From the UHGV virus genome UHGV-0219829: a stretch of 26,053 nucleotides of DNA. One strand, written 5' to 3'. The notes below the pieces were generated by a model that was not told where the DNA came from, ran no database searches, and worked only from the letters and a program-made list of their open reading frames with translations. The translations under genes and the position numbers were made by a program. Shown here in pieces: positions 187-25,011 of the stretch. Every line of letters starts with the position of its first letter. The stretch's first letter is position 1. Origin of the DNA: a virus.

Positions 187-1197
187 TTATAACGTCACTC
201 CGCCTTTTAGTGGATTCAGAGCGACGGCATTTTGCAGATAGTCAGGCGCAAGGTGCGCATAGGCCATCGTCTGCTGAATGCTCGCATGTCCCAGAATCTG
301 TTGCAGTGCGATTATATTGCCCCCATTCATCATGAAATGGCTTGCGAATGTATGCCGCAGGATGTGGGTTGCCTGATTGGGTGGTATATCAGGTTTCACT
401 CTGCGTAAAATCCCGCAAAATTTCTCATAATCAACTTTGAATAATTTGGCGCTGGCCTCCTCTTTAACTTTTTTCTCCAGTTCCTCAGAAATCGGCACGG
501 TTCGCTTTTTACCGTTTTTGGTTTTCAGGAAGGTAACCCTGCAATTTGTAATCTGTGCTGGTTTTAGCGTGGCAACTTCCGTCCATCTTCCTCCAGTGCT
601 CAGACATAAAAGCGCGACAAGTAAGTCATCACCAGCCAAAACATTTAACAGTTTTTCGATTTCTGCTTTTTCCAGGAACGTCATTTCAGGGTTGGCCTCC
701 GCCAGTGGCGGCAGTCCGTGAATTGGGTGTTGCCCGGAAAATTCATCCAATTGAATTAATTTTGTGAACATGCCGGATAATCGGTACATGTCACGGTTTA
801 TCGTTGCGGCACTGATACCATCACGTAGTCGCATGGAACGATAATCCATCAAAGCCCTTTTGCTCATCCTGCTCACTGGTATATCACCTATGCCGCTGAT
901 GGTTTTGAGTAGATGATTAAACTCTTTTGTTCCATGCTCGTGGTTTTGCCCGTGATATTTCCACCAGATGTCCAGCAACTCACTCAAAGTCCGGCGGTCT
1001 GCTCGCTGGCCTCCCCATTCTTTCTGACTGGCATTGGCGATTGTGTATCGCTCAAATGCTAGTGCTTCAGCTTTTCTTTCGAATTTCCTGCGGATGCGTT
1101 TTCCGTCGCGACCGCGAGGTCTAATGTCCACTTCATAGCGACCATCATCGAGCTTCTTAATTGCCATAAGAAAGCCCTCCGGCGCTGTATTCACCAT
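187..1197 (-). CDS. int: Tyrosine site-specific integrase (P2 Int-like)
   Basis: 336-aa ORF at the prophage edge, adjacent to and co-oriented with the repressor. C-terminal region contains HxLRHT, matching the conserved tyrosine-recombinase box (ATHILRHTFASHFMMNGGNIIALQQILGHASIQQTMAYAHL). An alternative ATG at 1167 (MAIKKL...) has a GGAGG Shine-Dalgarno, so the true start may be 1167. Confidence 0.9.
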   Translation of the reverse strand: MVNTAPEGFLMAIKKLDDGRYEVDIRPRGRDGKRIRRKFERKAEALAFERYTIANASQKEWGGQRADRRTLSELLDIWWKYHGQNHEHGTKEFNHLLKTISGIGDIPVSRMSKRALMDYRSMRLRDGISAATINRDMYRLSGMFTKLIQLDEFSGQHPIHGLPPLAEANPEMTFLEKAEIEKLLNVLAGDDLLVALLCLSTGGRWTEVATLKPAQITNCRVTFLKTKNGKKRTVPISEELEKKVKEEASAKLFKVDYEKFCGILRRVKPDIPPNQATHILRHTFASHFMMNGGNIIALQQILGHASIQQTMAYAHLAPDYLQNAVALNPLKGGVTL

Positions 1198-3423: not shown

Positions 3424-3695
3424 GTATTCGTATTGAAATTGGCGAACGTTATGTCGTTACCAGTGACAGCTTTCAGTTTATTCTCCACGAGAAAAAGAGA
3501 GCTGAAAGCGGTAAAAACGCCGGTCAGGAATGGCTGGCGGTGGTTGGTTATTACCCGAAATTAAGCCAGCTTGTTTCCGGCCTGATGCATCACGATATTC
3601 TGACCGGAAGCGCAAAGTCTTTTGCTGATTTAAACGCGCAGGTTGAGCAACTCAGCAAGCGTTGTTCAGAGGCTTTTGGCTCATATGGCCGTTAA
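3420..3695 (+). CDS. Hypothetical early protein (P2 orf83-position)
   Basis: 91-aa ORF with ATG overlapping the upstream stop, immediately before gene A. Confidence 0.6.
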   Translation: MSIRIEIGERYVVTSDSFQFILHEKKRAESGKNAGQEWLAVVGYYPKLSQLVSGLMHHDILTGSAKSFADLNAQVEQLSKRCSEAFGSYGR

Positions 3696-5961
3696 AGCCT
3701 CCGGGCGTTTTGTCCCTCCGTCAGCATTTGCCGCAGGCACCGGTGAGACGTTTACCGGTGCTTATGCATGGAACGCGCCACGCGAGGCCGTCGGGCGCGA
3801 AAGACCCCTTACACGTGACGAGATGCGTCAGGTGCAAGGTGTTTTATCCACGATTAATCGCCTGCCTTACTTTTTGCGCTCGCTGTTTACTTCACGCTAT
3901 GACTACATCCGGCGCAATAAAAGCCCGGTGCACGGGTTTTATTTCCTCACATCCACTTTTCAGCGCCGTTTATGGCCGCGTATTGAGCGCGTGAATCAGC
4001 GCCATGAAATGAACACCGACGCGTCGTTGCTGTTTCTGGCAGAGCGTGACCATTATGCGCGTCTGCCGGGGATGAATGACAAGGAGCTGAAAAAGTTTGC
4101 CGCCCGTATCTCATCGCAGCTTTTCATGATGTATGAGGAACTCTGCGATGCATGGGTTGATGCACATGGCGAGAAAGAATCGCTGTTTACAGATGAGGCG
4201 CAGGCGCATCTGTATGGTCATGTTGCTGGCGCTGCACGTGCTTTCAATATTTCCCCTCTCTACTGGAAAAAATACCGTAAAGGACAGATGACCACGAGGC
4301 AGGCATATTCTGCCATTGCCCGTCTGTTTAACGATGAGTGGTGGACTCATCAGCTTAAAGGCCAGCGTATGCGCTGGCATGAGGCGTTACTGATTGCTGT
4401 CGGGGAGGTCAATAAAGACCGTTCTCCTTATGCCAGTAAACATGCCATTCGTGATGTGCGTGCACGCCGCCAGGCAAATCTGGAATTTCTTAAATCGTGT
4501 GACCTCGAAAACAGGGAAACCGGCGAGCGCATCGACCTTATCAGTAAGGTGATGGGCAGTATTTCTAATCCTGAAATTCGCCGGATGGAGCTGATGAACA
4601 CCATCGCCGGTATTGAGCGTTACGCCGCCGCAGAGGGTGATGTGGGGATGTTTATCACTCTGACCGCGCCGTCAAAGTATCACCCGACACGTCAGGTCGG
4701 AAAAGGCGAAAGTAAAACCGTCCAGCTAAATCACGGCTGGAATGATGAGGCATTTAATCCAAAGGATGCGCAGCGTTATCTCTGCCGCATCTGGAGCCTG
4801 ATGCGCACGGCATTCAAGGATAATGATTTACAGGTCTACGGTTTGCGAGTCGTCGAGCCACACCACGACGGAACGCCGCACTGGCATATGATGCTTTTTT
4901 GTAATCCACGCCAGCGTAACCAGATTATCGAAATCATGCGTCGCTATGCGCTCAAAGAGGATGGTGACGAAAGAGGAGCCGCGCGAAACCGTTTTCAGGC
5001 AAAACACCTTAACCGGGGCGGTGCTGCGGGATATATCGCGAAATACATCTCAAAAAACATCGATGGCTATGCACTGGATGGTCAGCTCGATAACGATACC
5101 GGCAGGCCGCTGAAAGACACTGCCGCGGCTGTTACCGCATGGGCGTCAACGTGGCGCATTCCGCAATTTAAAACGGTTGGCCTGCCGACAATGGGGGCTT
5201 ACCGTGAACTACGCAAATTGCCTCGCGGCGTCAGCATTGCTGATGAGTTTGACGAACGCGTCGAGGCTGCACGCGCTGCCGCAGACAGTGGTGATTTTGC
5301 GTTGTATATCAGCGCGCAGGGTGGGGCAAATGTTCCGCGCGATTGTCAGACTGTCAGGGTTGCCCGTAGTCCGTCGGATGAAGTTAACGAGTACGAGGAA
5401 GAAGTCGAGAGAGTGGTCGGCATTTACGCGCCGCATCTCGGCGCGCGTCATATTCATATCACCAGAACGACGGACTGGCGCATTGTTCCGAAAGTGCCGG
5501 TCGTTGAGCCTTTGACTTTAAAAAGCGGCATCGCCGCGCCTCGGAGTCCTGTCAATAACTGTGGAAAGCTCACCGGTGGTGATACTTCGTTACCAGCTCC
5601 CACACCTTCTGAGCACGCCGCAGCAGTGCTTAATCTGGTTGATGACGGTGTCATCGAATGGAATGACCCGGAGGTCGTGAGGGCGCTCAGAGGTGCATTA
5701 AAACATGGCCTGAGAACACCAAATCGCCAGCAAAGAAACGGAAGCCCGTTAAAACCGCATGAAATGGCACCATCGGCCAGACTGACCCGGTCGGAACGAA
5801 TGCAAATTACCCGTATCCGCGTTGACCTTGCTCAGAACGGTATCAGGCCGCAGCGATGGGAGCTTGAGGCGCTGGCGCGTGGGGCAACCGTAAATTATGA
5901 CGGGAAAAAATTCACGTATCCGGTCGCTAATGAGTGGTCGGTTTTTTCAATTAAACAATAA
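3685..5961 (+). CDS. A: Rolling-circle replication initiator protein A (HUH endonuclease)
   Basis: About 758 aa from ATG 3685 (the track start at 3643 is TTG). Contains an HUH motif (TPHWHMMLF) and a downstream paired-tyrosine motif (GYIAKYISK), both seen directly. Position and size match P2 gpA. Confidence 0.9.
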   Translation: MAVKASGRFVPPSAFAAGTGETFTGAYAWNAPREAVGRERPLTRDEMRQVQGVLSTINRLPYFLRSLFTSRYDYIRRNKSPVHGFYFLTSTFQRRLWPRIERVNQRHEMNTDASLLFLAERDHYARLPGMNDKELKKFAARISSQLFMMYEELCDAWVDAHGEKESLFTDEAQAHLYGHVAGAARAFNISPLYWKKYRKGQMTTRQAYSAIARLFNDEWWTHQLKGQRMRWHEALLIAVGEVNKDRSPYASKHAIRDVRARRQANLEFLKSCDLENRETGERIDLISKVMGSISNPEIRRMELMNTIAGIERYAAAEGDVGMFITLTAPSKYHPTRQVGKGESKTVQLNHGWNDEAFNPKDAQRYLCRIWSLMRTAFKDNDLQVYGLRVVEPHHDGTPHWHMMLFCNPRQRNQIIEIMRRYALKEDGDERGAARNRFQAKHLNRGGAAGYIAKYISKNIDGYALDGQLDNDTGRPLKDTAAAVTAWASTWRIPQFKTVGLPTMGAYRELRKLPRGVSIADEFDERVEAARAAADSGDFALYISAQGGANVPRDCQTVRVARSPSDEVNEYEEEVERVVGIYAPHLGARHIHITRTTDWRIVPKVPVVEPLTLKSGIAAPRSPVNNCGKLTGGDTSLPAPTPSEHAAAVLNLVDDGVIEWNDPEVVRALRGALKHGLRTPNRQQRNGSPLKPHEMAPSARLTRSERMQITRIRVDLAQNGIRPQRWELEALARGATVNYDGKKFTYPVANEWSVFSIKQ

Positions 5962-6162: not shown

Positions 6163-7107
6163 ATGCCAACAGTAGTTTCACTTTTTTCTGGATGCGGTGG
6201 TTCCGATGCGGGGGTTTTGAGAGCCGGCTTTGATGTGCTTATGGCCAACGATATCTTGCCGTATGCGCGCGATGTTTATATTGCCAATCATCCAGAAACT
6301 GATTACATATTAGGCAATATTGCTGATGTAACTACTTTTCCTAAATCTGATTTGCTGGTAGGTTGTTATCCATGTCAGGGATTCAGCCAGGGTGGTGCGC
6401 GTAAAGCCGATCGAAAAATTAATACTCTTTATTTAGAGTTTGCTAGAGCTTTAAACAATATAAAGCCTAAAGCTTTTATAGTAGAAAACGTGTCTGGTAT
6501 GGTTAGAAAAAATTTTGAGCATTTGTTATCTGACCAGATCAGGGTTTTTACTGAAGCAGGTTATACTGTTTCCGCAAAAGTTTTAAATGCGGCTGAATAT
6601 GGAGTAGCGCAGGAAAGAAAAAGAATATTTATCGTAGGAATCCGTAATGATTTCAAAGTTAAGTACGAGTTCCCTCAGCCAACTCATGGGCCAGCAACTG
6701 GCGTCAACTATGTTACTATTAAAGATGCTATAGGGCATTTACCTGAATGGCCAGAAGGTGAATTTTATGATATGGGATTCCATTGGTATTATATGTCTCG
6801 CAATCGTCGCCAGGATTGGGATCAAATTTCAAAGACAATAGTTGCTAATGCAAGGCATATGCCGTTGCATCCTGTCAGTCCTCCGATGGAGAAAGTAAGA
6901 ACTGATGAATGGAGATTTGTTGAGGATCGGAGAGCTCGCAGATTCAGTTTTCGAGAGGCAGCACTATTACAAGGGTTTGAGGATCTAGTGTTTCCAGAAA
7001 CAAATGCTGCAAGTCTTGGCATGAAATACACGGTGGTTGGTAATGCAGTGCCTCCGCCGCTTTTTGAAGCTGTAACGAAGGCATTGCCAATAGAATTATG
7101 GGATTGA
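6163..7107 (+). CDS. DNA (cytosine-5)-methyltransferase (Dcm-type C5-MTase)
   Basis: 314-aa ORF carrying the full canonical C5-MTase motif set: motif I FSGCGG, motif IV PCQGFS (catalytic Cys), motif VI ENV, motif VIII QERKR, motif IX REAALLQGF, motif X GNAVPPPL. Confidence 0.9.
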   Translation: MPTVVSLFSGCGGSDAGVLRAGFDVLMANDILPYARDVYIANHPETDYILGNIADVTTFPKSDLLVGCYPCQGFSQGGARKADRKINTLYLEFARALNNIKPKAFIVENVSGMVRKNFEHLLSDQIRVFTEAGYTVSAKVLNAAEYGVAQERKRIFIVGIRNDFKVKYEFPQPTHGPATGVNYVTIKDAIGHLPEWPEGEFYDMGFHWYYMSRNRRQDWDQISKTIVANARHMPLHPVSPPMEKVRTDEWRFVEDRRARRFSFREAALLQGFEDLVFPETNAASLGMKYTVVGNAVPPPLFEAVTKALPIELWD

Positions 7108-7114
7108 TAAGCTA

Positions 7115-8104
7115 TTAAGGCTCTGGATTTAATGTATAAAGCTCTTCCTCAAATTCGCGAAACCAATCAGAGGTAGTTATCGCTTCCCATTGGTTTGCCT
7201 TATCAAGTAGATATATGATTCTCAACCTATCTAATAATAATACCCCAGCGGTTGCGTGTGTGCTTACCCATTCGCCATTTGCTTCCCGATAGAAAACAGG
7301 CGTGAACATTGTTGATGGATGCTGGAACGCAATTTGGAAATAGGTGGTCAGTTTTAACACGTTAGCCTCTAATGTTTTGCTTGGCCACCCTGTTTCTTGT
7401 GCGCCACATTGACCAAGAATTCCATAGTTGCTAGTTTGACCATCAGGAAATTCCACTGTAGCAATTAGGTCAAACCCGGCATCACCAGATGTGGGAGCTC
7501 TATTTATTTCCCTTGTGTTTAAACTACAAACTCCAAGATCTTTTCCTAAAGTTTGTAGAGCTGTCCGAAGATTTGTTCCATAATAATTTTGCCTATCATC
7601 GGAGTTAGCATCAAAAATTCTTACGGTGCCATGTGCAGGTAAGAGAGAAATCATTGCTACTTTACATACTCTGGCAAAGCTCTTTGCCCAACGTTGTGCT
7701 GCTCCTTTAATCGACTTAAAGGATCTAAGTCTAGAGCAGCAAAGAAGAAAAACATATATTCGTTGTTGTTGGTTTAGATTTTCTTTAATAATTATCTCAT
7801 CACCTGAAATTATAAATGGATATATTTTGCCAAGAGCACTTTCTCTATATTCGAGTTGTGTCCAAACATCTTCGAGTTGCTCTTCAAAACGATCATTTCT
7901 CTCAGCGTCTCCATTAATTTCTTCTTCAGAATTACATTCTTCATCAATTTCTTCAACGCTTGTTATGCCGAATTTTCTTACTGAATCTAAATCATTTTTA
8001 TGTAGTGAGTTACGTCCGGTATAATTAATTACCGTGAGTAACTCGGCTAAATCTGCAAACAAATGAGGAGAGTTGGGATGCATAACTCCTACTTCAAAAG
8101 TCAT
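7115..8104 (-). CDS. Hypothetical protein, partner of the ParB-like protein; function unknown (candidate defence effector)
   Basis: About 329-aa ORF. ATG starts at 8107/8104 lie just downstream of a GAGG, and the gene overlaps the upstream gene's stop, suggesting translational coupling. Its stop is 7 nt from the convergent MTase stop. Low GC. I recognised no confident motif. Confidence 0.65.
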   Translation of the reverse strand: MTFEVGVMHPNSPHLFADLAELLTVINYTGRNSLHKNDLDSVRKFGITSVEEIDEECNSEEEINGDAERNDRFEEQLEDVWTQLEYRESALGKIYPFIISGDEIIIKENLNQQQRIYVFLLCCSRLRSFKSIKGAAQRWAKSFARVCKVAMISLLPAHGTVRIFDANSDDRQNYYGTNLRTALQTLGKDLGVCSLNTREINRAPTSGDAGFDLIATVEFPDGQTSNYGILGQCGAQETGWPSKTLEANVLKLTTYFQIAFQHPSTMFTPVFYREANGEWVSTHATAGVLLLDRLRIIYLLDKANQWEAITTSDWFREFEEELYTLNPEP

Positions 8105-9215
8105 CATCACCTCTGCTATTTTTCTCTGCTATTTCAGAACCTATAAGCTTAATATGTTTATTGATTCTTCGTGCTACTTCATGGGCCTGTCTATCATACT
8201 CTACCGTGGCAACCATGCCTGCTGCATCTATCAAAGCTGCTTCAACTTGATAAAGTAACTGGAGAAAGTCCTTAGTAATATCAGATGTCAATTGATAGGC
8301 AACTGCGAGTGGAGCCCCCATTCGGAATTGCTCCAATGCCTTAGGGCTACTTACAACAGCAGCTAGTTCTCTTAAATTACGTGATTCTCCTACACGAGTT
8401 TTTTTATCCTCGCCTTTTTTATATAACCATTCAGTTAGTTCTTTTATTTCTTTGTTCTTTAAACTCTTAGAATTGATGATAGGATGACTTGGTATTGTGT
8501 CTCCATCGTCTTCGATTGAAACTCCGACAAACTGGCCTAACCGCTCATCAGCAAGTGCTGTTGATAATACTGAAAATTTAATCGTTTCTTCATCTAGCTT
8601 TTCAATACCATAAAAATCATTTTTTTTAATGATTTCATACACCGCTAAAGCGTCTAGGTTACGCTTGATATGATCCCTACGACTGCCAATAGCTCTGGCA
8701 ACCTCATAGTAGCGTAGCATTGGATCCAGATTTGCATTGGTATAATCAAAAAGCTGTTTAATATATCGAGCTTTTGATAAGGGTTCCCATTGTTTGACAC
8801 CAGTAATATGTCTGAAACCAAGGTACGGAAGAATCTCTTCTCTTGTTTGGCGCTCAATGACAGGAACACGATCGACCGTATGTTTTGCATTTGATGCAAT
8901 TTCTCGTAGTCGAGCACTTGGATTTTCACATAGTGTCGGATCGCGTAATAATTTGACCGCGGATAGGCGACGGTTTCCTTCAACTACAATGTACTTCCCC
9001 GGCGCTCCACTATCAGGAATGACAATCAATGGTTCTCCAGGGAAAAAACCATTTTCCGCAATAGCACTCATTAGGTCTTCGATAGATGTTGAGGTTGCTA
9101 TGTAGTTAATCATTCCCAATTGGTCACGAGACACGCCTTCAGGAAGTCTTGGGTTTTCTGTGTCAAGTTCCAAATCATCTAGCGGAACATAAAGTATTTC
9201 TGAATCAGCAATCAT
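8094..9215 (-). CDS. ParB/Srx-like N-terminal domain protein (ParB-like nuclease/NTP-binding fold) with probable HTH; candidate defence component
   Basis: About 373 aa from ATG 9215, which has a GGAG Shine-Dalgarno 6 nt upstream (the track start 9254 is TTG). ParB box-like motifs are seen directly: LDDLELDTENPR and IVVEGNRRLSAVK (GxRR arginine finger-like). Confidence 0.7.
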   Translation of the reverse strand: MIADSEILYVPLDDLELDTENPRLPEGVSRDQLGMINYIATSTSIEDLMSAIAENGFFPGEPLIVIPDSGAPGKYIVVEGNRRLSAVKLLRDPTLCENPSARLREIASNAKHTVDRVPVIERQTREEILPYLGFRHITGVKQWEPLSKARYIKQLFDYTNANLDPMLRYYEVARAIGSRRDHIKRNLDALAVYEIIKKNDFYGIEKLDEETIKFSVLSTALADERLGQFVGVSIEDDGDTIPSHPIINSKSLKNKEIKELTEWLYKKGEDKKTRVGESRNLRELAAVVSSPKALEQFRMGAPLAVAYQLTSDITKDFLQLLYQVEAALIDAAGMVATVEYDRQAHEVARRINKHIKLIGSEIAEKNSRGDDDF

Positions 9216-9441
9216 CTGGATCTCCGTTGAACATGTCCACGAGAAGGAGCACAAAGTTATTTCATAACATGCAATATACTCATTCTGTAGCCATAAATGA
9301 ATTATTCATGATGTAAGATTCGCGTTGATGTGCGTGAATTCGCAAGTAATTATACAGCAAGGTTTGATTGGGTATCGTCAGCACCAGTGCGGTTCCAACG
9401 TACTCATGCAACTGCATTAAAACCGCCCCATGAAGCGGGCG

Positions 9442-9460
9442 GGCGAGGCGGGGAAAGCAC
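9442..9460. other. cos: cos cohesive-end site (GGCGAGGCGGGGAAAGCAC) for terminase cleavage/packaging
   Basis: The 19-mer matches the P2 cohesive end as I recall it (from memory, not verified). It lies in the non-coding region just upstream of portal gene Q, where cos sits in P2. Confidence 0.6.
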
Positions 9461-9602: not shown

Positions 9603-9628
9603 AAAAAAGCCGCCCGCAGGCGGCGATG
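9603..9628 (-). terminator. Rho-independent terminator of the leftward P-Q late operon
   Basis: On the minus strand, 5 nt after the Q stop: GCCGCC-tgcg-GGCGGC hairpin followed by TTTTTT. Confidence 0.7.
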
Positions 9629-9629
9629 T

Positions 9630-10664
9630 TCAGCCGTTGTCAGTGTCCAGTGAGTAGTTTTTAAAGCGGATGACCTCCTGGCCGAGCCAGCCGTTTATCT
9701 CGCGGATCCTGTCCTGTAACGGGATAAGCTCATTGCGGACAAAGACCTTTGCCACTTTCTCAATATCACCCAGCGACCCGACGTTCTCCGGCTTGCCGCC
9801 CATCAACTGAAAAGGGATGCGGTGCGCGTCCAGCAGGTCTGCGGCGCTGGCTTTTTTGATATTAAAAAAATCGTCCTTCGTTGCCACTTCACTGAGCGGG
9901 ATAATTTTAATGCCGTCGGCTTTCCCCTGTGGGGCATAGAGAAACAGATTTTTAAAGTTGTTGCGGCCTTTCGACTTAACCATGTTTTCGCGAAGCATTT
10001 CGATATCGTTGCGATCCTGCACGGCATCAGTGACGTACATGATGTATCCGGCATGTGCTCCATTTTCGTAATACTTGCGGCGGAACAGCGTGGCCGACTC
10101 ATTCAGCCAGGCAGAGTTAAGGGCGCTGAGATATTCCGGCAGGCCGTACAGCTCCTGATTAATATCCGGCTCCAGCAGGTGAAACACGGAGCCGGGCGCG
10201 AAGGCTGTCGGCTCGTTGAAGGACGGCACCCACCAGTAAACATCCTCTTCCACACCACGGCGGGTATATTTTGCCGGTGAGGTTTCCAGTCTGATGACCT
10301 TACCGGTAGTGCTGTAACGCTTTTCCAGAAACGCATTACCGAACACCAGAAAATCCAGCACAAAGCGGCTGAAATCCTGCTGGGAAAGCCACGGATGCGG
10401 GATAAATGTCGAGGCCAGAATATTACGTTTGACGTAAATCGGTGAGCTGTGATGCACGGCAGCACGCAGGCTTTTTGCCAGACCGGTAAAGCTGACCGGT
10501 GGCTCATACCATCTGCCGTTACTGATGCACTCGACGTAATCCAGAATGTCACGGCGGTCGAGTACCGGCACCGGCTCGCCAAAGGTGAATGCTTCCATTT
10601 TCGGGGCGCTGGCGGTCATTTTTTTTGCCGCAGGTTGCGGTGTTTTCCCTTTTTTCTTGCTCAT
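9630..10664 (-). CDS. Q: Portal protein (gpQ)
   Basis: 344-aa ORF, the same size as P2 gpQ. Its ATG overlaps the P stop (ATGA). Lysine-rich N-terminus. Confidence 0.9.
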   Translation of the reverse strand: MSKKKGKTPQPAAKKMTASAPKMEAFTFGEPVPVLDRRDILDYVECISNGRWYEPPVSFTGLAKSLRAAVHHSSPIYVKRNILASTFIPHPWLSQQDFSRFVLDFLVFGNAFLEKRYSTTGKVIRLETSPAKYTRRGVEEDVYWWVPSFNEPTAFAPGSVFHLLEPDINQELYGLPEYLSALNSAWLNESATLFRRKYYENGAHAGYIMYVTDAVQDRNDIEMLRENMVKSKGRNNFKNLFLYAPQGKADGIKIIPLSEVATKDDFFNIKKASAADLLDAHRIPFQLMGGKPENVGSLGDIEKVAKVFVRNELIPLQDRIREINGWLGQEVIRFKNYSLDTDNG

Positions 10665-12436
10665 CAGTAAAACTCCAGAATGGTGGATGTCAGCGGGGTG
10701 CTGATACCGGCGGTGAGTGGCTCATTTAACAGGGCGTGCATGGTTGCCCAGGCGAGGTCGGCGTGGCTGGCTTCCTCGCTGCGGCTGGCCTCATAGGTGG
10801 CGCTGCGTCCGCTGCTGGTCATGGTCTTGCGGATAGCCATAAACGAGCTGGTGATGTCGGTGGCGCTGACGTCATATTCCAGACAGCCACGGCGGATAAC
10901 GTCTTTTGCCTTGAGCACCATTGCGGTTTTCATTTCCGGCGTGTAGCGGATATCGCGCGCGGCGGGATAGAACGAGCGCACGAGCTGGAACACGCCGACA
11001 CCGAGGCCGGTGGCATCAATCCCGATGTATTCAACGTTATATTTTTCGGTGAGTTTGCGGATGGATTCCGCCTGGGTGGCAAAGTCCATGCCTTTCCACT
11101 GGTGACGCTCAAGTATTCTGAATTTGCCACCGGCCACCACCGGCGGTGCCAGTACCACGCATCCGGCGCTGTCGCCACGGTGTGACGGGTCGTAACCAAT
11201 CCATACCGGGCGGGAGCCGAACGGATTGGCGGCAAAGGGTGCATAGTCTTCCCATTCTTCCAGCGTGTCGACCATGCAGCGTTGCAGCTCCTCGAACGGG
11301 AACACCGACGCCTTGTCGTCAACAAATTCACACATGAACAGGTTTTTAAAATCGTCGGCGCTGTTTTCGCGTTTGAGCTGCTCAATGTCGAACAGCGTGC
11401 AGCCACCTTTCAGGGCGTCCTCAATGGTGACAATCTGTCGCCACTGGCCGTCCGCACAGAGAAGCCCACCGGCAAGGGCGTTATGACTGACGTCGATTTC
11501 CACGCGTTCGGCGGCGCTGGCGCGTCCCCGGTTAAACAGTTCACCCGACCAGAACGGGTAGGCGTCGTGCGCCAGCGTGGACGGGGTGGAGAAATAGGTC
11601 GAGCGCAGGTGGCTCTGTGAGGCCATACCTGATGCCACCTTACGCAGTACCTGAAAATTCGGGATCCAGAAAATCTCGTCGACGTACAGGTCGCCGTTAT
11701 GGCTCTGTGCGGTGTTGGAGTTGGTGCCGAGAAAAATCAGTTTTGCGCCGTTATTGCCCAGGACAATCGGGTCACCGGTCAGGTCAACGTCAACCAGCCG
11801 GGCAAAGGCGATGATGTATTCGCGGAACACATACGCCTGCGTTTTACTGGCCGACAGAAAAATCTGGTTATGACCGGTTTTCAGGGCACGCAGCAGCGCC
11901 TCGCGGGAAAAATAAAACGTCGCGCCAATCTGGCGGGATTTCAGGATATCGCGGATGCGGTGCTCAAGCCCGGCGCGATACCAGTGCAACTGATAGTCGA
12001 AAGACTGCTCAAAGAAAATCTGCTCCAGCTTTTCGATGGCCTCGTCACTGAAAAAATTCTTTTTCGGTTTGCGACGCCCGCCTTTGTTGCGGTTAGCGAC
12101 GTTCGGATTAAGGTCTGCCTCGTTGCCGGTCTGACTGTAGCGGTTTACCCGTGCCAGTCGTTCAATCTGGCGTCCGAGCAGGTCAATTTCCTTGAAGTCA
12201 CCACCGGTTTTCTGCGGTTTGATGATGAGCTGGGTCAGCCGCGCTTCCAGACTCATTTCGACACGGCTGATGGGGGCAACGCTGTCCCAGCCGTCGCGCT
12301 GTTTCCAGCTCTGCACCGTCGGGCGTTTCATCTGCAACATGGCGGCAATCTGCGGCACGGAAAACCCCTGCCAGTACAGCAGCGCCGCCTGACGACGCGG
12401 GTCGTGTAAAAGAGTGGTGTCTGTGGTGATGGTCAT
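10664..12436 (-). CDS. P: Terminase large subunit (gpP)
   Basis: 590 aa from ATG 12436, which has a GAGG Shine-Dalgarno (the track start 12466 is TTG). Size equals P2 gpP; located upstream of the portal. Confidence 0.9.
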   Translation of the reverse strand: MTITTDTTLLHDPRRQAALLYWQGFSVPQIAAMLQMKRPTVQSWKQRDGWDSVAPISRVEMSLEARLTQLIIKPQKTGGDFKEIDLLGRQIERLARVNRYSQTGNEADLNPNVANRNKGGRRKPKKNFFSDEAIEKLEQIFFEQSFDYQLHWYRAGLEHRIRDILKSRQIGATFYFSREALLRALKTGHNQIFLSASKTQAYVFREYIIAFARLVDVDLTGDPIVLGNNGAKLIFLGTNSNTAQSHNGDLYVDEIFWIPNFQVLRKVASGMASQSHLRSTYFSTPSTLAHDAYPFWSGELFNRGRASAAERVEIDVSHNALAGGLLCADGQWRQIVTIEDALKGGCTLFDIEQLKRENSADDFKNLFMCEFVDDKASVFPFEELQRCMVDTLEEWEDYAPFAANPFGSRPVWIGYDPSHRGDSAGCVVLAPPVVAGGKFRILERHQWKGMDFATQAESIRKLTEKYNVEYIGIDATGLGVGVFQLVRSFYPAARDIRYTPEMKTAMVLKAKDVIRRGCLEYDVSATDITSSFMAIRKTMTSSGRSATYEASRSEEASHADLAWATMHALLNEPLTAGISTPLTSTILEFY

Positions 12437-12609
12437 GAATACCTCGCCGTGATGAATACACGGCAAGGCTACTGAGTCGCGCCCCGCGATTCGCTAAGGT
12501 GCTGTTGTGTCAGTGATAAGCCATCCGGGACTGATGGCGGAGGATGCGCATCGTCGGGAAACTGATGCCGACATGTGACTCCTCTAATCACTATTCAGGA
12601 CTCCTGACA
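12437..12609. promoter_or_regulatory. Divergent late promoter region (by analogy with P2 PP leftward and PO rightward, activator-dependent)
   Basis: Non-coding region between divergent P and O. I could not locate a perfect TGT-N12-ACA element, so exact promoter elements are unassigned. Confidence 0.4.
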
Positions 12610-21368: not shown

Positions 21369-22942
21369 CAGTGAAATACTACGCCATTCTGACTAATCAG
21401 GGCGCAGCACGGCTGGCTAACGCGACGATGCTCGGCAGTAAGCTGAATCTGACGCAAATGGCCGTTGGTGATGCGAATGGTGTCTTGCCGACACCAGACC
21501 CGGCACAGACAAAACTGATTAACCAGAAACGCATCGCGCCGCTGAATCTTCTGAGTGTTGACCCGAACAACCAGAGCCAGATTATTGCGGAGCAAATCAT
21601 CCCTGAGAACGAGGGCGGATTCTGGATCCGTGAGATTGGGCTTTATGATGATGAAGGCGTACTCATTGCGGTGGCGAATTGCCCGGAAACGTACAAACCG
21701 CAGTTGCAGGAAGGCAGTGGTCGTACCCAGACTATCCGCATGATTCTGGTTGTCACGAATACCGAAGCCATCACGCTGAAAATTGACCCGTCGGTGGTAC
21801 TGGCAACACGCAAATATGTGGATGACAAAATTTCTGAGCACGAACAGTCACGACGCCACCCGGACGCCTCGCTGACCGCAAAAGGTTTTACTCAGTTAAG
21901 CAGTGCAACCAACAGCACATCTGAAACAATGGCCGCAACACCGAAAGCGGTTAAGGCAGCGTACGACCTTGCTAACGGAAAATATACCGCTCAGGACGCT
22001 ACTACGGCACGAAAAGGCCTTGTTCAACTCAGTAGCGCCACAAACAGCACGTCTGAAACGCTGGCTGCAACGCCAAAAGCTGTTAAGACGGTAATGGATG
22101 AAGCGAACAAAAAAGCGCCATTAAACAGCCCGGCGCTGACCGGAACGCCAACAACGCCAACTGCGCCAAAGGGTACTAATAATACTCAGATAGCAAGCAC
22201 GGCTTATGTTATGGCTGCGATTGCTGCGCTTGTAGACTCGTCGCCTGACGCACTTAACACGCTGAACGAACTGGCCGCCGCGCTTGGTAATGATCCAAAT
22301 TTTGCGACCACCATGACTAACGCGCTCGCGGGCAAGCAACCGAAGGATGCCACCCTGACGGCGCTGGCAGGACTGTCTACATCAGCCGATAAACTCCCTT
22401 ATTTTACAGGGGCAGATCGTGCCGCGTTAACTGCACTGACAAGTGTTGGGCGTACCATTCTTGGTAAAACCAGCACTCAGGGAGTTCTTGATTACCTTGG
22501 TTTGGGAGAAGGCTCTGCATTGCCTGTTGGTGTACCAATTCCGTGGCCTTCTGCAACACCACCAGGCGGTTGGCTAAAATGCAATGGCGCAACTTTTGAC
22601 AAAGCGAAATATCCTCAGCTTGCAAAGGTATACCCTACCGGGAAATTACCTGATTTGCGTGGCGTGTTTATTCGTGGCTGGGATGATGGACGGGGAATTG
22701 ATACCAGTCGTGCTCTACTTTCAGAGCAGCAACCTAAAGTTGGTCAGTTCTGGGCAAGAGGAACAACATATACCGTAAGTCCTGGCAGTATCTATATAAC
22801 CGATGCGATTTCAATAGGACAATCACCATCCAGTGTTGCGGTAAATAACGATTCCGGCGCATCGGAAAATTACGTTGAAGTAACCCCTGTTGATACCAGA
22901 CCTATCAACAATGCGTTTAACTATATCGTGAGGGCTGCGTAA
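21365..22942 (+). CDS. H: Tail fibre protein (gpH) with an internal tandem protein repeat and a probably exchanged C-terminal receptor-binding region
   Basis: 525-aa ORF. Seen directly: repeated block QLSSATNSTSET[M/L]AATPKAVK (about nt 21893-21957 and 22025-22087). Shorter than P2 gpH (669 aa as I recall). Confidence 0.85.
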   Translation: MTVKYYAILTNQGAARLANATMLGSKLNLTQMAVGDANGVLPTPDPAQTKLINQKRIAPLNLLSVDPNNQSQIIAEQIIPENEGGFWIREIGLYDDEGVLIAVANCPETYKPQLQEGSGRTQTIRMILVVTNTEAITLKIDPSVVLATRKYVDDKISEHEQSRRHPDASLTAKGFTQLSSATNSTSETMAATPKAVKAAYDLANGKYTAQDATTARKGLVQLSSATNSTSETLAATPKAVKTVMDEANKKAPLNSPALTGTPTTPTAPKGTNNTQIASTAYVMAAIAALVDSSPDALNTLNELAAALGNDPNFATTMTNALAGKQPKDATLTALAGLSTSADKLPYFTGADRAALTALTSVGRTILGKTSTQGVLDYLGLGEGSALPVGVPIPWPSATPPGGWLKCNGATFDKAKYPQLAKVYPTGKLPDLRGVFIRGWDDGRGIDTSRALLSEQQPKVGQFWARGTTYTVSPGSIYITDAISIGQSPSSVAVNNDSGASENYVEVTPVDTRPINNAFNYIVRAA

Positions 22943-23544
22943 TGAATACAGCGGTTTTAAATAGTAGCTTTATTGCAATAGAGGCTGGGGATATTACAGT
23001 TTATAACTATGATGGCGAGACGCGGGAATATATTTCCACATCAACTGAATATCTTGCTGCTGGTGTCGGTATCCCGGCATGTTCTTGTTTAGATGCACCA
23101 GGCACACATAAGGCTGGCTATACAATCTGCCGCTCATCGGATTTTAACTCATGGGAATATGTGCCAGACCATCGCGGTGAAATCGTCTATAACACCGAAA
23201 CGGGTGACGCCAAAGAAATCACAGCACCGGGCGACTATCCTGAAAACACAACCACTATCGCCCCGTTAACGCCATACGATAAATGGGATGGTGAGAAATG
23301 GGTGACAGACACTGAGGCACAACACAGTGCCGCAGTAGAAGCGGCAGAAGCACAGCGCCAGTCACTGATTGATGCTGCTATGGCTTCCATTAGTCTGATT
23401 CAGTTGAAATTGCAGGCCGGGCGCAAACTGACGCAAACAGAAACAACCCGACTTAACGCTGTGCTGGATTACATTGACGCGGTGACAGCAACAGATACCA
23501 GCACAGCGCCGGATGTTATCTGGCCTGAACTGCCGGAGGCGTAG
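22942..23544 (+). CDS. G: Tail fibre assembly chaperone (gpG)
   Basis: 200-aa ORF; its ATG overlaps the H stop (TAATG). Confidence 0.8.
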   Translation: MNTAVLNSSFIAIEAGDITVYNYDGETREYISTSTEYLAAGVGIPACSCLDAPGTHKAGYTICRSSDFNSWEYVPDHRGEIVYNTETGDAKEITAPGDYPENTTTIAPLTPYDKWDGEKWVTDTEAQHSAAVEAAEAQRQSLIDAAMASISLIQLKLQAGRKLTQTETTRLNAVLDYIDAVTATDTSTAPDVIWPELPEA

Positions 23545-23555
23545 GTCATTCAATA

Positions 23556-23597
23556 TCTGGAGCACTGGAAATATCGACCAGTTCCAGTGCGTCCAGA
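23556..23597. repeat. Long imperfect inverted repeat (TCTGGAGCACTGGAA ... TTCCAGTGCgTCCAGA) downstream of G
   Basis: Seen directly: perfect 8-bp core stem CACTGGAA/TTCCAGTG (23563-23570 and 23582-23589) with an 11-nt loop, extendable to about 15 bp with one bulge. No following T-run. Confidence 0.5.
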
Positions 23598-23820
23598 TAA
23601 TCGAGTGAGAGGGAACAGACAGGACGGTTGCTGGTTGTGGGGGAATCACGTCAACGTGTGGCGCTGATTTTTGATATTGGCCTGTCCACGCTCTATAAAA
23701 ATCCCCCTCATCAGCGACAAAGAATAAATTGTGTCATCCCTTAGCCAACCGGGATAAATAGCCTGACATCTCCGACACACATGAAAATACCACTCACCCA
23801 TTAACCACGGAGTTAAACGG

Positions 23821-25011
23821 ATGAGTGACTATCATCATGGCGTGCAGGTGCTGGAGATTAACGACGGCACCCGCGTCATTTCCACCGTATCCACTGCCAT
23901 TGTCGGCATGGTCTGCACGGCCAGCGATGCGGATGCGGAAACCTTCCCCCTCAATAAACCGGTGCTGATTACCAATGTGCAGAGCGCAATTGCAAAGGCC
24001 GGTAAAAAAGGCACGCTGGCGGCGTCGTTGCAGGCCATCGCTGACCAGTCAAAACCAGTCACCGTTGTCGTGCGTGTTGAAGACGGCACCGGCGACGACG
24101 AGGAAACGAAACTCGCGCAGACCGTTTCCAATATCATAGGCACCACTGACGAAAACGGTCAGTACACCGGACTGAAAGCCCTGCTGGCGGCGGAGTCGGT
24201 TACCGGCGTTAAACCGCGCATTCTTGGTGTGCCGGGGCTGGACACCAAAGAGGTTGCCGTCGCACTGGCATCGGTATGCCAGGAACTGAATGCATTCGGG
24301 TATATCAGCGCATGGGGCTGTAAAACCATTTCCGAGGTGAAAGCCTACCGCCAGAATTTCAGCCAGCGTGAGCTGATGGTCATCTGGCCGGATTTCCTCG
24401 CATGGGATACGGTCACCAGCACCACCGCCACCGCGTATGCCACCGCCCGTGCGCTGGGTCTGCGCGCTAAAATCGACCAGGAGCAGGGCTGGCATAAAAC
24501 GCTGTCCAACGTCGGGGTAAACGGTGTTACCGGCATCAGCGCATCTGTATTCTGGGATTTGCAGAAGTCCGGCACTGATGCTGACCTGCTGAACGAGGCA
24601 GGCGTCACAACGCTGGTTCGCCGCGACGGTTTCCGTTTCTGGGGTAACCGTACCTGCTCCGATGACCCACTGTTCCTCTTTGAAAGCTACACACGCACCG
24701 CGCAGGTACTGGCCGACACGATGGCTGAGGCGCACATGTGGGCTATTGATAAGCCCATCACCGCAACGCTGATTCGCGACATCATTGATGGCATCAATGC
24801 CAAATTCCGCGAACTGAAAAGCAACGGTTATATCGTGGATGGCACATGCTGGTTCAGTGAAGAATCCAACGATGCGGAAACCCTCAAGGCCGGAAAACTG
24901 TATATCGACTACGACTATACCCCGGTGCCTCCCCTCGAAAACCTGACCCTGCGCCAGCGTATTACTTCAAGATACCTGGCAAGTCTGGTCACCTCGGTTA
25001 ACAGCAATTAA
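23821..25011 (+). CDS. FI: Tail sheath protein (gpFI)
   Basis: 396-aa ORF, equal to P2 gpFI. Confidence 0.9.
   Translation: MSDYHHGVQVLEINDGTRVISTVSTAIVGMVCTASDADAETFPLNKPVLITNVQSAIAKAGKKGTLAASLQAIADQSKPVTVVVRVEDGTGDDEETKLAQTVSNIIGTTDENGQYTGLKALLAAESVTGVKPRILGVPGLDTKEVAVALASVCQELNAFGYISAWGCKTISEVKAYRQNFSQRELMVIWPDFLAWDTVTSTTATAYATARALGLRAKIDQEQGWHKTLSNVGVNGVTGISASVFWDLQKSGTDADLLNEAGVTTLVRRDGFRFWGNRTCSDDPLFLFESYTRTAQVLADTMAEAHMWAIDKPITATLIRDIIDGINAKFRELKSNGYIVDGTCWFSEESNDAETLKAGKLYIDYDYTPVPPLENLTLRQRITSRYLASLVTSVNSN

Follow-up and report, generated by a model that had tools for sequence, protein, structure and literature searches.

The 329-amino acid protein encoded at positions 7115-8104 of the UHGV virus genome UHGV-0219829 (26,053 nucleotides [nt], the whole of which is referred to here as the window) is, on balance, probably the DNA-cutting effector of a three-gene, probably nucleoside triphosphate (NTP)-gated, restriction-modification (R-M)-like anti-phage cassette in a P2-like prophage. 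The other two components are a ParB-like protein encoded immediately upstream and a convergent C5 cytosine DNA methyltransferase. The cassette is most likely an accessory 'moron' lodged in the hotspot between the replication and portal genes. It is of a known kind: an R-M-like module in a P2 hotspot, with a PD-(D/E)xK effector and a ParB-like partner related to PD-λ-5_A. The family of the 329-amino acid protein is itself unannotated in every library searched. Comparisons with Pfam, NCBIfam, and PADLOC returned noise only (W_rich_C, E 0.09; EntD, E 0.15), and the matches among PHROGs were confined to families of unknown function.

Sequence conservation marks the open reading frame (ORF) as a real gene, far beyond a chance ORF. 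We found 252 homologues in a database clustered at 90% identity, many of them at 50-60% identity, in gamma- and beta-proteobacterial hosts (Enterobacterales, Pseudomonas, Burkholderia, methylotrophs, and Nitrosomonadales). All 252 are labelled 'hypothetical' and lack Pfam domains. Searching 1.84 billion representatives with a profile retrieved 1240 clusters (50% identity) at E<=1e-3, 220 of them at <=1e-30, nearly all coding for proteins of 310-350 amino acids that matched end to end. The gene is also full length in all 48 of the complete E. coli genomes that carry it. Across 66 members with identities down to 22%, 12 positions are invariant (D18, E21, R87, Y95, Y117, F143, D208, D212, Q232, W240, R293, and R295) and six others (K243, C233, D221, D292, R273, and W279) are conserved in at least 95% (63-65 of the 66). 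A Pfam scan of the 66 distant homologues gave no match.

The predicted structure and the conserved residues of the protein point to a nuclease, with the following features:

7115-8104 (stop codon included), minus strand: 329-amino acid protein with a winged helix and a restriction-endonuclease-fold domain
7775-8077, minus strand: winged-helix domain (approximately residues 10-110), with D18, E21, R87, and Y95-P96-F97 invariant in the family
7859-7966, minus strand: acidic, length-variable insertion in the winged helix (approximately residues 47-82), indel-rich and poorly conserved
7190-7771, minus strand: PD-(D/E)xK-type domain (approximately residues 112-305)
7469-7486, minus strand: G207-D208-A-G210-F-D212 motif (codons checked), with D208 and D212 in 66 of 66 distant homologues
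7376-7411, minus strand: Q232-C-G...W240-P-S-K243, with Q232 and W240 in 66 of 66 and K243 in 65 of 66

A first-pass annotation of this DNA had proposed a possible effector and named remote homology search and structure prediction as ways to look for a nuclease fold. The AlphaFold (AF2) model (predicted local distance difference test [pLDDT], 87.9; predicted template modeling score [pTM], 0.89) has such a fold: an N-terminal winged helix, whose acidic insertion was modeled at a pLDDT of about 80, precedes a C-terminal PD-(D/E)xK restriction-endonuclease fold with the alpha-beta-beta-beta-alpha-beta core of the superfamily. The best two Foldseek matches of the model were BsaWI and MspJI (probability 0.99 for MspJI). 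Compared with all PDB sequences, a profile of the diverse family weakly matched the MspJI nuclease core only (E 0.0092), and a profile of the close family produced no meaningful match. The alignment pairs SSGDgGlDlV...vfGQCa of the family with SSGDGGVDFI...LGQAKC of MspJI and, by counting, D212 with MspJI D334 and Q232 with MspJI Q355. Both MspJI residues are said to belong to its catalytic D-x20-Q-x-K motif. At the level that computation allows, the fold and these aligned residues support a nuclease effector, and a likely but unproven active site would consist of D208/D212, Q232, and K243. We consider this site likely because displaced catalytic residues occur elsewhere in the superfamily; the glutamate in the NgoMIV/Cfr10I group is one. 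D165 (in FDANSDDR) was dropped as a catalytic candidate; it is conserved in the close family only and is a glycine in 44 of the 66 distant members. The acidic stretch singled out at first pass (EEIDEECNSEEEINGDAERNDRFEEQLED, residues 53-81) is present, but the close-family alignment places it in the variable, indel-rich insertion of the winged helix and we rejected it as a functional motif.

The gene is packed tightly between its two neighbors, as described by these features:

8094-8104, minus strand: overlap between the ParB-like ORF and the nuclease gene, 11 nt from ATG 8104 (14 nt from ATG 8107)
8110-8113, minus strand: GAGG, Shine-Dalgarno-like, 5 nt 5' of ATG 8104
7108-7114: 7-nt gap between the convergent stop codons of the nuclease and methylase genes

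Three in-frame codons (GTG 8110, ATG 8107, and ATG 8104) are candidate starts, and ATG 8104 (MTFEVG...) fits because the N-termini of the homologues read M-x-F-x-(I/V)-G. The overlap with the ParB-like ORF (stop TGA at 8096-8094), the GAGG just before the start codon (8113-8110), and the 7-nt spacing between the nuclease stop (TAA, 7117-7115) and the methylase stop (TGA, 7105-7107) had all been described at first pass and were borne out. From the 11-nt overlap we infer that the ParB-like gene and the nuclease gene are translationally coupled. A terminator-like site was sought in the gap and none was found, the gap being too short to hold one. A promoter scan returned no more sites than shuffled sequence. 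On the minus strand at 9349-9356, some 135 nt ahead of where the ParB-like gene starts, a TG directly precedes TATAAT, a possible -10 element of the ParB-like/nuclease operon that has no good -35 and was not reported by the consensus scan.

The upstream gene encodes a protein with the hallmarks of the ParB/Srx fold:

8094-9215, minus strand: ParB/Srx-fold partner, 373 amino acids from ATG 9215 (TTG 9254 in the ORF list)

Its start is probably ATG 9215, since the PHROG and homologue alignments begin there and the homologues have 367-380 amino acids. The protein begins with an N-terminal NTPase-type domain and has a helix-turn-helix (HTH) region; its C-terminus is helical and ends in an acidic DDDxF tail. 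Its alignment contains the ParB/Srx boxes DxxNPR and EGNRR (R82 and R83 invariant), a GFRHITGxKxWEP motif, and a conserved GESRNLR. Furthermore, the protein matches at least 25 PADLOC models of PD-Lambda-5_A (the best being PDLC04013, E 6.6e-29, residues 22-295) as well as TIGR00180 and ParB PHROGs. We considered a HEPN domain in this protein and rejected it, as it has neither an R-x4-6-H motif nor a HEPN structural match. The DDDxF tail (8094-8108, with F373 nearly invariant) is encoded exactly where the ORF overlaps the start of the nuclease gene and resembles the C-terminal DDDIPF protein-docking tail of the single-stranded DNA-binding protein SSB. By analogy, the nuclease, or else a protein of the host or phage, could dock onto this tail.

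The third gene faces the other two:

6163-7107, plus strand: C5 cytosine DNA methyltransferase, 314 amino acids, convergent with the nuclease gene (Pfam DNA_methylase, E 5.5e-65)

The methylase is complete, with all the catalytic motifs (FSGCGG, PCQGFS, ENV, QERKR, and GNAVPP in the translation), and also matches TIGR00675 dcm and a DruM2-like model of PADLOC (1e-113). The nearest solved structure is M.HaeIII, which aligns over the full length (E 1e-48). The enzyme is presumed to be the self-protecting modification subunit. Full-length copies of the nuclease and methylase genes occur together in 48 of 48 E. coli genomes.

The same three genes travel together well beyond E. coli. We compared 23 loci of close relatives (Pseudomonas, Burkholderia, Salmonella, Edwardsiella, Halomonas, methylotroph metagenome-assembled genomes, and others) and nine loci of distant relatives (24-30% identity). 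A ParB-like gene lies directly upstream of the nuclease gene, on the same strand, in all 17 close loci with upstream sequence, and directly upstream of the homologue in all nine distant loci. The two genes overlap by 11-14 nt in 15 of 18 close loci and are at most 30 nt apart in the rest, the distant ones included. The presence of the partner in every locus with flanking sequence answers the question of co-occurrence raised at first pass, and its position, overlapping or within 30 nt upstream in 17 close and nine distant loci, supports the co-expression suggested there. A convergent C5 methylase comes next in 14 of the 17 close loci with enough downstream sequence, and one is adjacent in all eight distant loci with enough flank, in varying order and orientation. 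This supports the proposal of an R-M-like module. The methylases of the distant loci differ mostly in the variable region, which fits changed specificities.

Some loci have additional genes. Small HTH_3/HTH_26 genes in two distant loci (L024 and L028) may code for C-protein-like controllers, and another distant locus (L035, 467-1830) has genes for a Vsr mismatch endonuclease and an HNH_2 protein beside the methylase. An HNH endonuclease gene separates the nuclease and methylase genes in L010 (6988-7929), and an IS607-like element with a serine recombinase and TnpB directly follows the nuclease gene in L014 (3259-5104). The nuclease homologue of L019 is C-terminally divergent and the locus has no methylase. 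In phage Wphi (L030, NC_005056.1 29419-32589), this hotspot holds the same arrangement (mth/orf96/orf98). The Wphi methylase shares 76% identity with that of the window, variable region included, but the ParB-like protein and nuclease share only 34% and 25%, respectively. What is left in the hotspot of Yersinia phage L-413C (L031, NC_004745.1 29530-30522) is a truncated ParB-like gene alone (residues 9-303, 62% identical), which suggests that the nuclease and methylase were lost jointly, as R and M.

Related systems suggest how the components could work together. In GmrSD, BrxU, and SspE, the nuclease is fused to a ParB-like NTPase domain that controls it (PMC12839542 and PMC13251355), and NTP hydrolysis is described as the allosteric switch for cleavage by SspE (PMC13251355). 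The cassette of the window likewise couples a ParB/Srx-fold NTP-binding module to a nuclease in a defence context. However, the ParB-like DUF262 domain (DGQQR type) of those enzymes is fused to a DUF1524 His-Me nuclease, whereas the window encodes a nuclease of the PD-(D/E)xK fold and keeps the two modules as separate, translationally coupled proteins. The Pfam domains DUF262 and DUF1524 had no match in either the ParB-like protein or the nuclease. GmrS and GmrD themselves were first known as separate polypeptides, encoded by a prophage. GmrSD-type enzymes are also stand-alone Type IV enzymes, unlike the nuclease of the window, which has the C5 methylase as an obligatory neighbor.

A second relative is PD-λ-5, a two-gene system ('ParB/HEPN, methyltransferase') from a prophage of E. 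coli ECOR7 that gave broad experimental protection, had to be cloned in a Δmrr host, and was read by its discoverers as a compacted R-M and abortive infection (Abi) system (PMC9519451). Each of the two systems resides in a prophage and combines a ParB-like protein and a methyltransferase, and the ParB-like protein of the window matches PD-Lambda-5_A. Unlike the PD-λ-5 protein, it has no HEPN domain. Furthermore, the window has a third conserved gene, one with no PADLOC match, between the two.

In the preferred reading, the ParB-like protein and the nuclease would work as a complex whose two parts are made in a fixed ratio. The ParB-like subunit would bind DNA and, by analogy with GmrSD and SspE, its binding or hydrolysis of NTP would be the switch that licenses the nuclease. 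The methylase would mark host and prophage DNA, leaving only unmethylated incoming DNA to be cut. The HEPN effector that PD-λ-5 carries on its ParB-like protein would thus be replaced by a separate DNA nuclease.

The layout also recalls Type II R-M systems with a C5 methylase, such as HaeIII. The R and M genes of these systems are convergent and closely packed and the C5 methylase is complete; the window similarly places a methylase gene beside an endonuclease gene, the endonuclease being assigned at the level of the fold only. The fold of the nuclease resembles those of the CCGG family (NgoMIV, Cfr10I, Bse634I, SgrAI, AgeI, and BsaWI), and its relatives have, as in Type II systems, an optional HTH gene (a possible controller) and Vsr. 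In contrast to Type II systems, the cassette has an obligatory third component with a ParB-CTPase (cytidine triphosphatase) fold, a winged helix at the N-terminus of the nuclease, and ParB-like and nuclease proteins that have diverged from those of Wphi to 25-34% identity while the methylase remains at 76%. The ParB-like protein in turn differs from the cytidine triphosphate (CTP)-dependent DNA clamps ParB and KorB in having no ParA partner or partition context and another C-terminal region. Literature searches for a system of a ParB protein, a nuclease, and a C5 methylase found no description of one.

Several findings weigh against a DNA-cutting effector held off self DNA by methylation. The lysine of the (D/E/Q)xK motif (K357 in MspJI) is G234 in the protein and an alanine in 51 of 66 relatives, so catalysis would require K243 as a migrated lysine. 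The invariant W240-x-x-K243 follows 8-11 residues downstream, with E246 common, and K243 and W240 may be the replacements for the lost residue. Neither Mrr_cat, Mrr_N, nor any other nuclease family of Pfam matches a member of the family (the protein and 66 relatives). With the diverse profile, hhalign scored E. coli Mrr at a probability of 34% as a single sequence and 3.5% as a profile, and hmmsearch gave at most 4.4 bits. The nearest nuclease relatives in sequence and architecture, MspJI and Mrr, are methylation-dependent rather than methylation-blocked. At one locus (L009), an intact ParB-like/nuclease pair adjoins a Type I hsdS gene with no C5 methylase within 6 kb. The Wphi mosaic would also be unusual if the nuclease itself read the target sequence of the methylase.

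The absence of the canonical lysine at position 234 favors an alternative in which the protein is a catalytically inactive DNA-recognition or adaptor subunit with a nuclease fold, and the ParB/Srx-fold partner is the enzyme, acting by NTP hydrolysis, nicking, or nucleotide depletion. The winged helix would provide such a subunit with a DNA-binding domain, and nuclease and NTPase activities have been reported for ParB/Srx proteins (literature cited in PMC10853773 and PMC12839542). Yet homologues with only 22-25% identity keep D208, D212, Q232, K243, and W240 invariant, in just the positions of the active site. Purifying selection on a catalytic center would give this pattern, and inactive nuclease folds usually lose such residues; we regard an inactive adaptor as rather improbable.

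A modification-dependent Type IV nuclease like Mrr or MspJI appears more improbable still. The methylase would then not be protective; it would mark DNA for attack, or the ParB-like protein would keep the nuclease off self DNA. The catalytic core of MspJI is indeed the sole match at the level of sequence, and both MspJI and Mrr have a DNA-binding N-terminal domain followed by a PD-(D/E)xK domain of the D-x(19-20)-Q-x-K type. The order of a winged helix and a D...Q-type nuclease domain within approximately 300-330 amino acids mirrors E. coli Mrr in particular, whose motifs run GDGGIDG...QAK...VLVDGERL. The MspJI gene, too, was reportedly found beside a C5 methylase gene. However, the lysine of the QxK motif is replaced by glycine or alanine in the family, and the resemblance to Mrr is limited to the GDGGID motif and the last strand (LLLDRLRI, similar to VLVDGERL). 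The hhalign and hmmsearch results led us to reject membership in the Mrr family; despite the like architecture and motif order, there is no statistically significant similarity on which to file the protein there. MspJI and Mrr also act alone on methylated DNA, whereas a ParB-like protein always, and a methylase almost always, accompanies the protein described here, and so strict and ancient a tie to an intact C5 methylase would make a methyl-directed enzyme self-destructive. The R-M-like joint loss of both genes in L-413C, and the possible controller-like HTH genes and Vsr in distant loci, which fit protective methylation of the host genome, also argue against it.

Equally improbable is an Abi or toxin-antitoxin-like pair, in which the ParB-like protein would restrain a nuclease toxin until infection releases it and the methylase would be accessory or independent; the overlapping two-gene layout is like that of toxin-antitoxin operons, PD-λ-5 has been described as R-M plus Abi (PMC9519451), and L009 keeps the pair with no methylase nearby, but no E. 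coli copy is without the methylase, 22 of 25 loci keep it despite very deep divergence, and the ParB-like protein is large and has conserved NTP-binding motifs, unlike labile antitoxins.

Within the preferred reading of a DNA-cutting R-M-like effector, a bolder possibility is a new class of restriction systems in which a ParB-CTPase-fold protein replaces the adenosine triphosphate (ATP)-driven motors of Type I and Type III enzymes and of McrBC. We consider this unlikely. The ParB-like protein would load at unmethylated sites as an NTP-gated clamp, slide or spread along the DNA, and recruit or activate a lysine-shifted, Mrr/MspJI-like nuclease, with C5 methylation excluding self DNA. Such a clamp would explain why the ParB-like partner is indispensable in over 1,000 sequence clusters and, if sites are not read as in Type II systems, why the ParB-like/nuclease pair diverged to 25-34% identity beside essentially the same methylase. 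The Wphi mosaic and the methylase-less L009 argue against a simple Type II system and leave room for an NTP-gated clamp that senses sites or communicates over long range.

P2-like prophages are a main reservoir of anti-phage genes in E. coli, and most of the genes in their hotspots are still 'hypothetical'. For one such unannotated family, the analysis supplies a fold, residues that may form the active site, and the system to which it belongs, and links it to PD-λ-5, which is validated and mechanistically unexplained. It also points to a large R-M-like family of three components (ParB-fold NTPase, nuclease, and C5 methylase) that present defence-finding tools would miss or mislabel. If the ParB-like protein does gate a restriction nuclease, the ParB-CTPase switch would have roles outside chromosome segregation as well, and the cassette would offer a compact and genetically tractable model in E. 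coli, including ATCC 8739. The genome of this strain, which is common in laboratories and quality control and so easily obtained as a host, has a copy of the nuclease and methylase genes that is 97-98% identical (NZ_CP043852.1 3850111-3852052).

The genomic setting agrees with a mobile accessory cassette. The ORF list and Pfam identify the window as a P2-like (Peduovirus) E. coli prophage, with C-type repressor and Cox genes (Pfam) and the following genes from the ORF list:

187-1197, minus strand: integrase
3643-5961: gpA replication endonuclease
9630-10664, minus strand: portal
10664-12466, minus strand: terminase, with the late structural genes beyond

The three-gene insert sits between the gpA and portal genes, at the variable locus that tin and old occupy in P2. 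This locus is defence hotspot #1 of Vassallo et al. (PMC9519451). Rousset et al. (2022), writing on P2 hotspots, make no mention of ParB or methylases. The guanine-cytosine (GC) content of the insert (34-43%) contrasts with that of its flanks (51-58%). Of 5426 complete E. coli genomes, 48 carry the whole insert at >=99.7% identity and 2174 share only the flanking phage genes. The insert is also found in Yersinia phage HQ103.

The second defence hotspot of P2, at the Z/fun position, is an empty 276-bp spacer here (23545-23820), with gene G for tail-fibre assembly (22942-23544) on one side and the sheath gene FI (23821-25011) on the other. The early region between cox and gpA has a 166-amino acid ORF (2109-2609) with no Pfam match. 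The minus strand at 9442-9460 reads GTGCTTTCCCCGCCTCGCC, the reverse complement of GGCGAGGCGGGGAAAGCAC, which we take to be the 19-nt cohesive end (cos) of P2. If this region is cos, the defence cassette falls between gpA and cos. Two terminator-like hairpins on the minus strand (9609-9624 and 9423-9442) flank the region.

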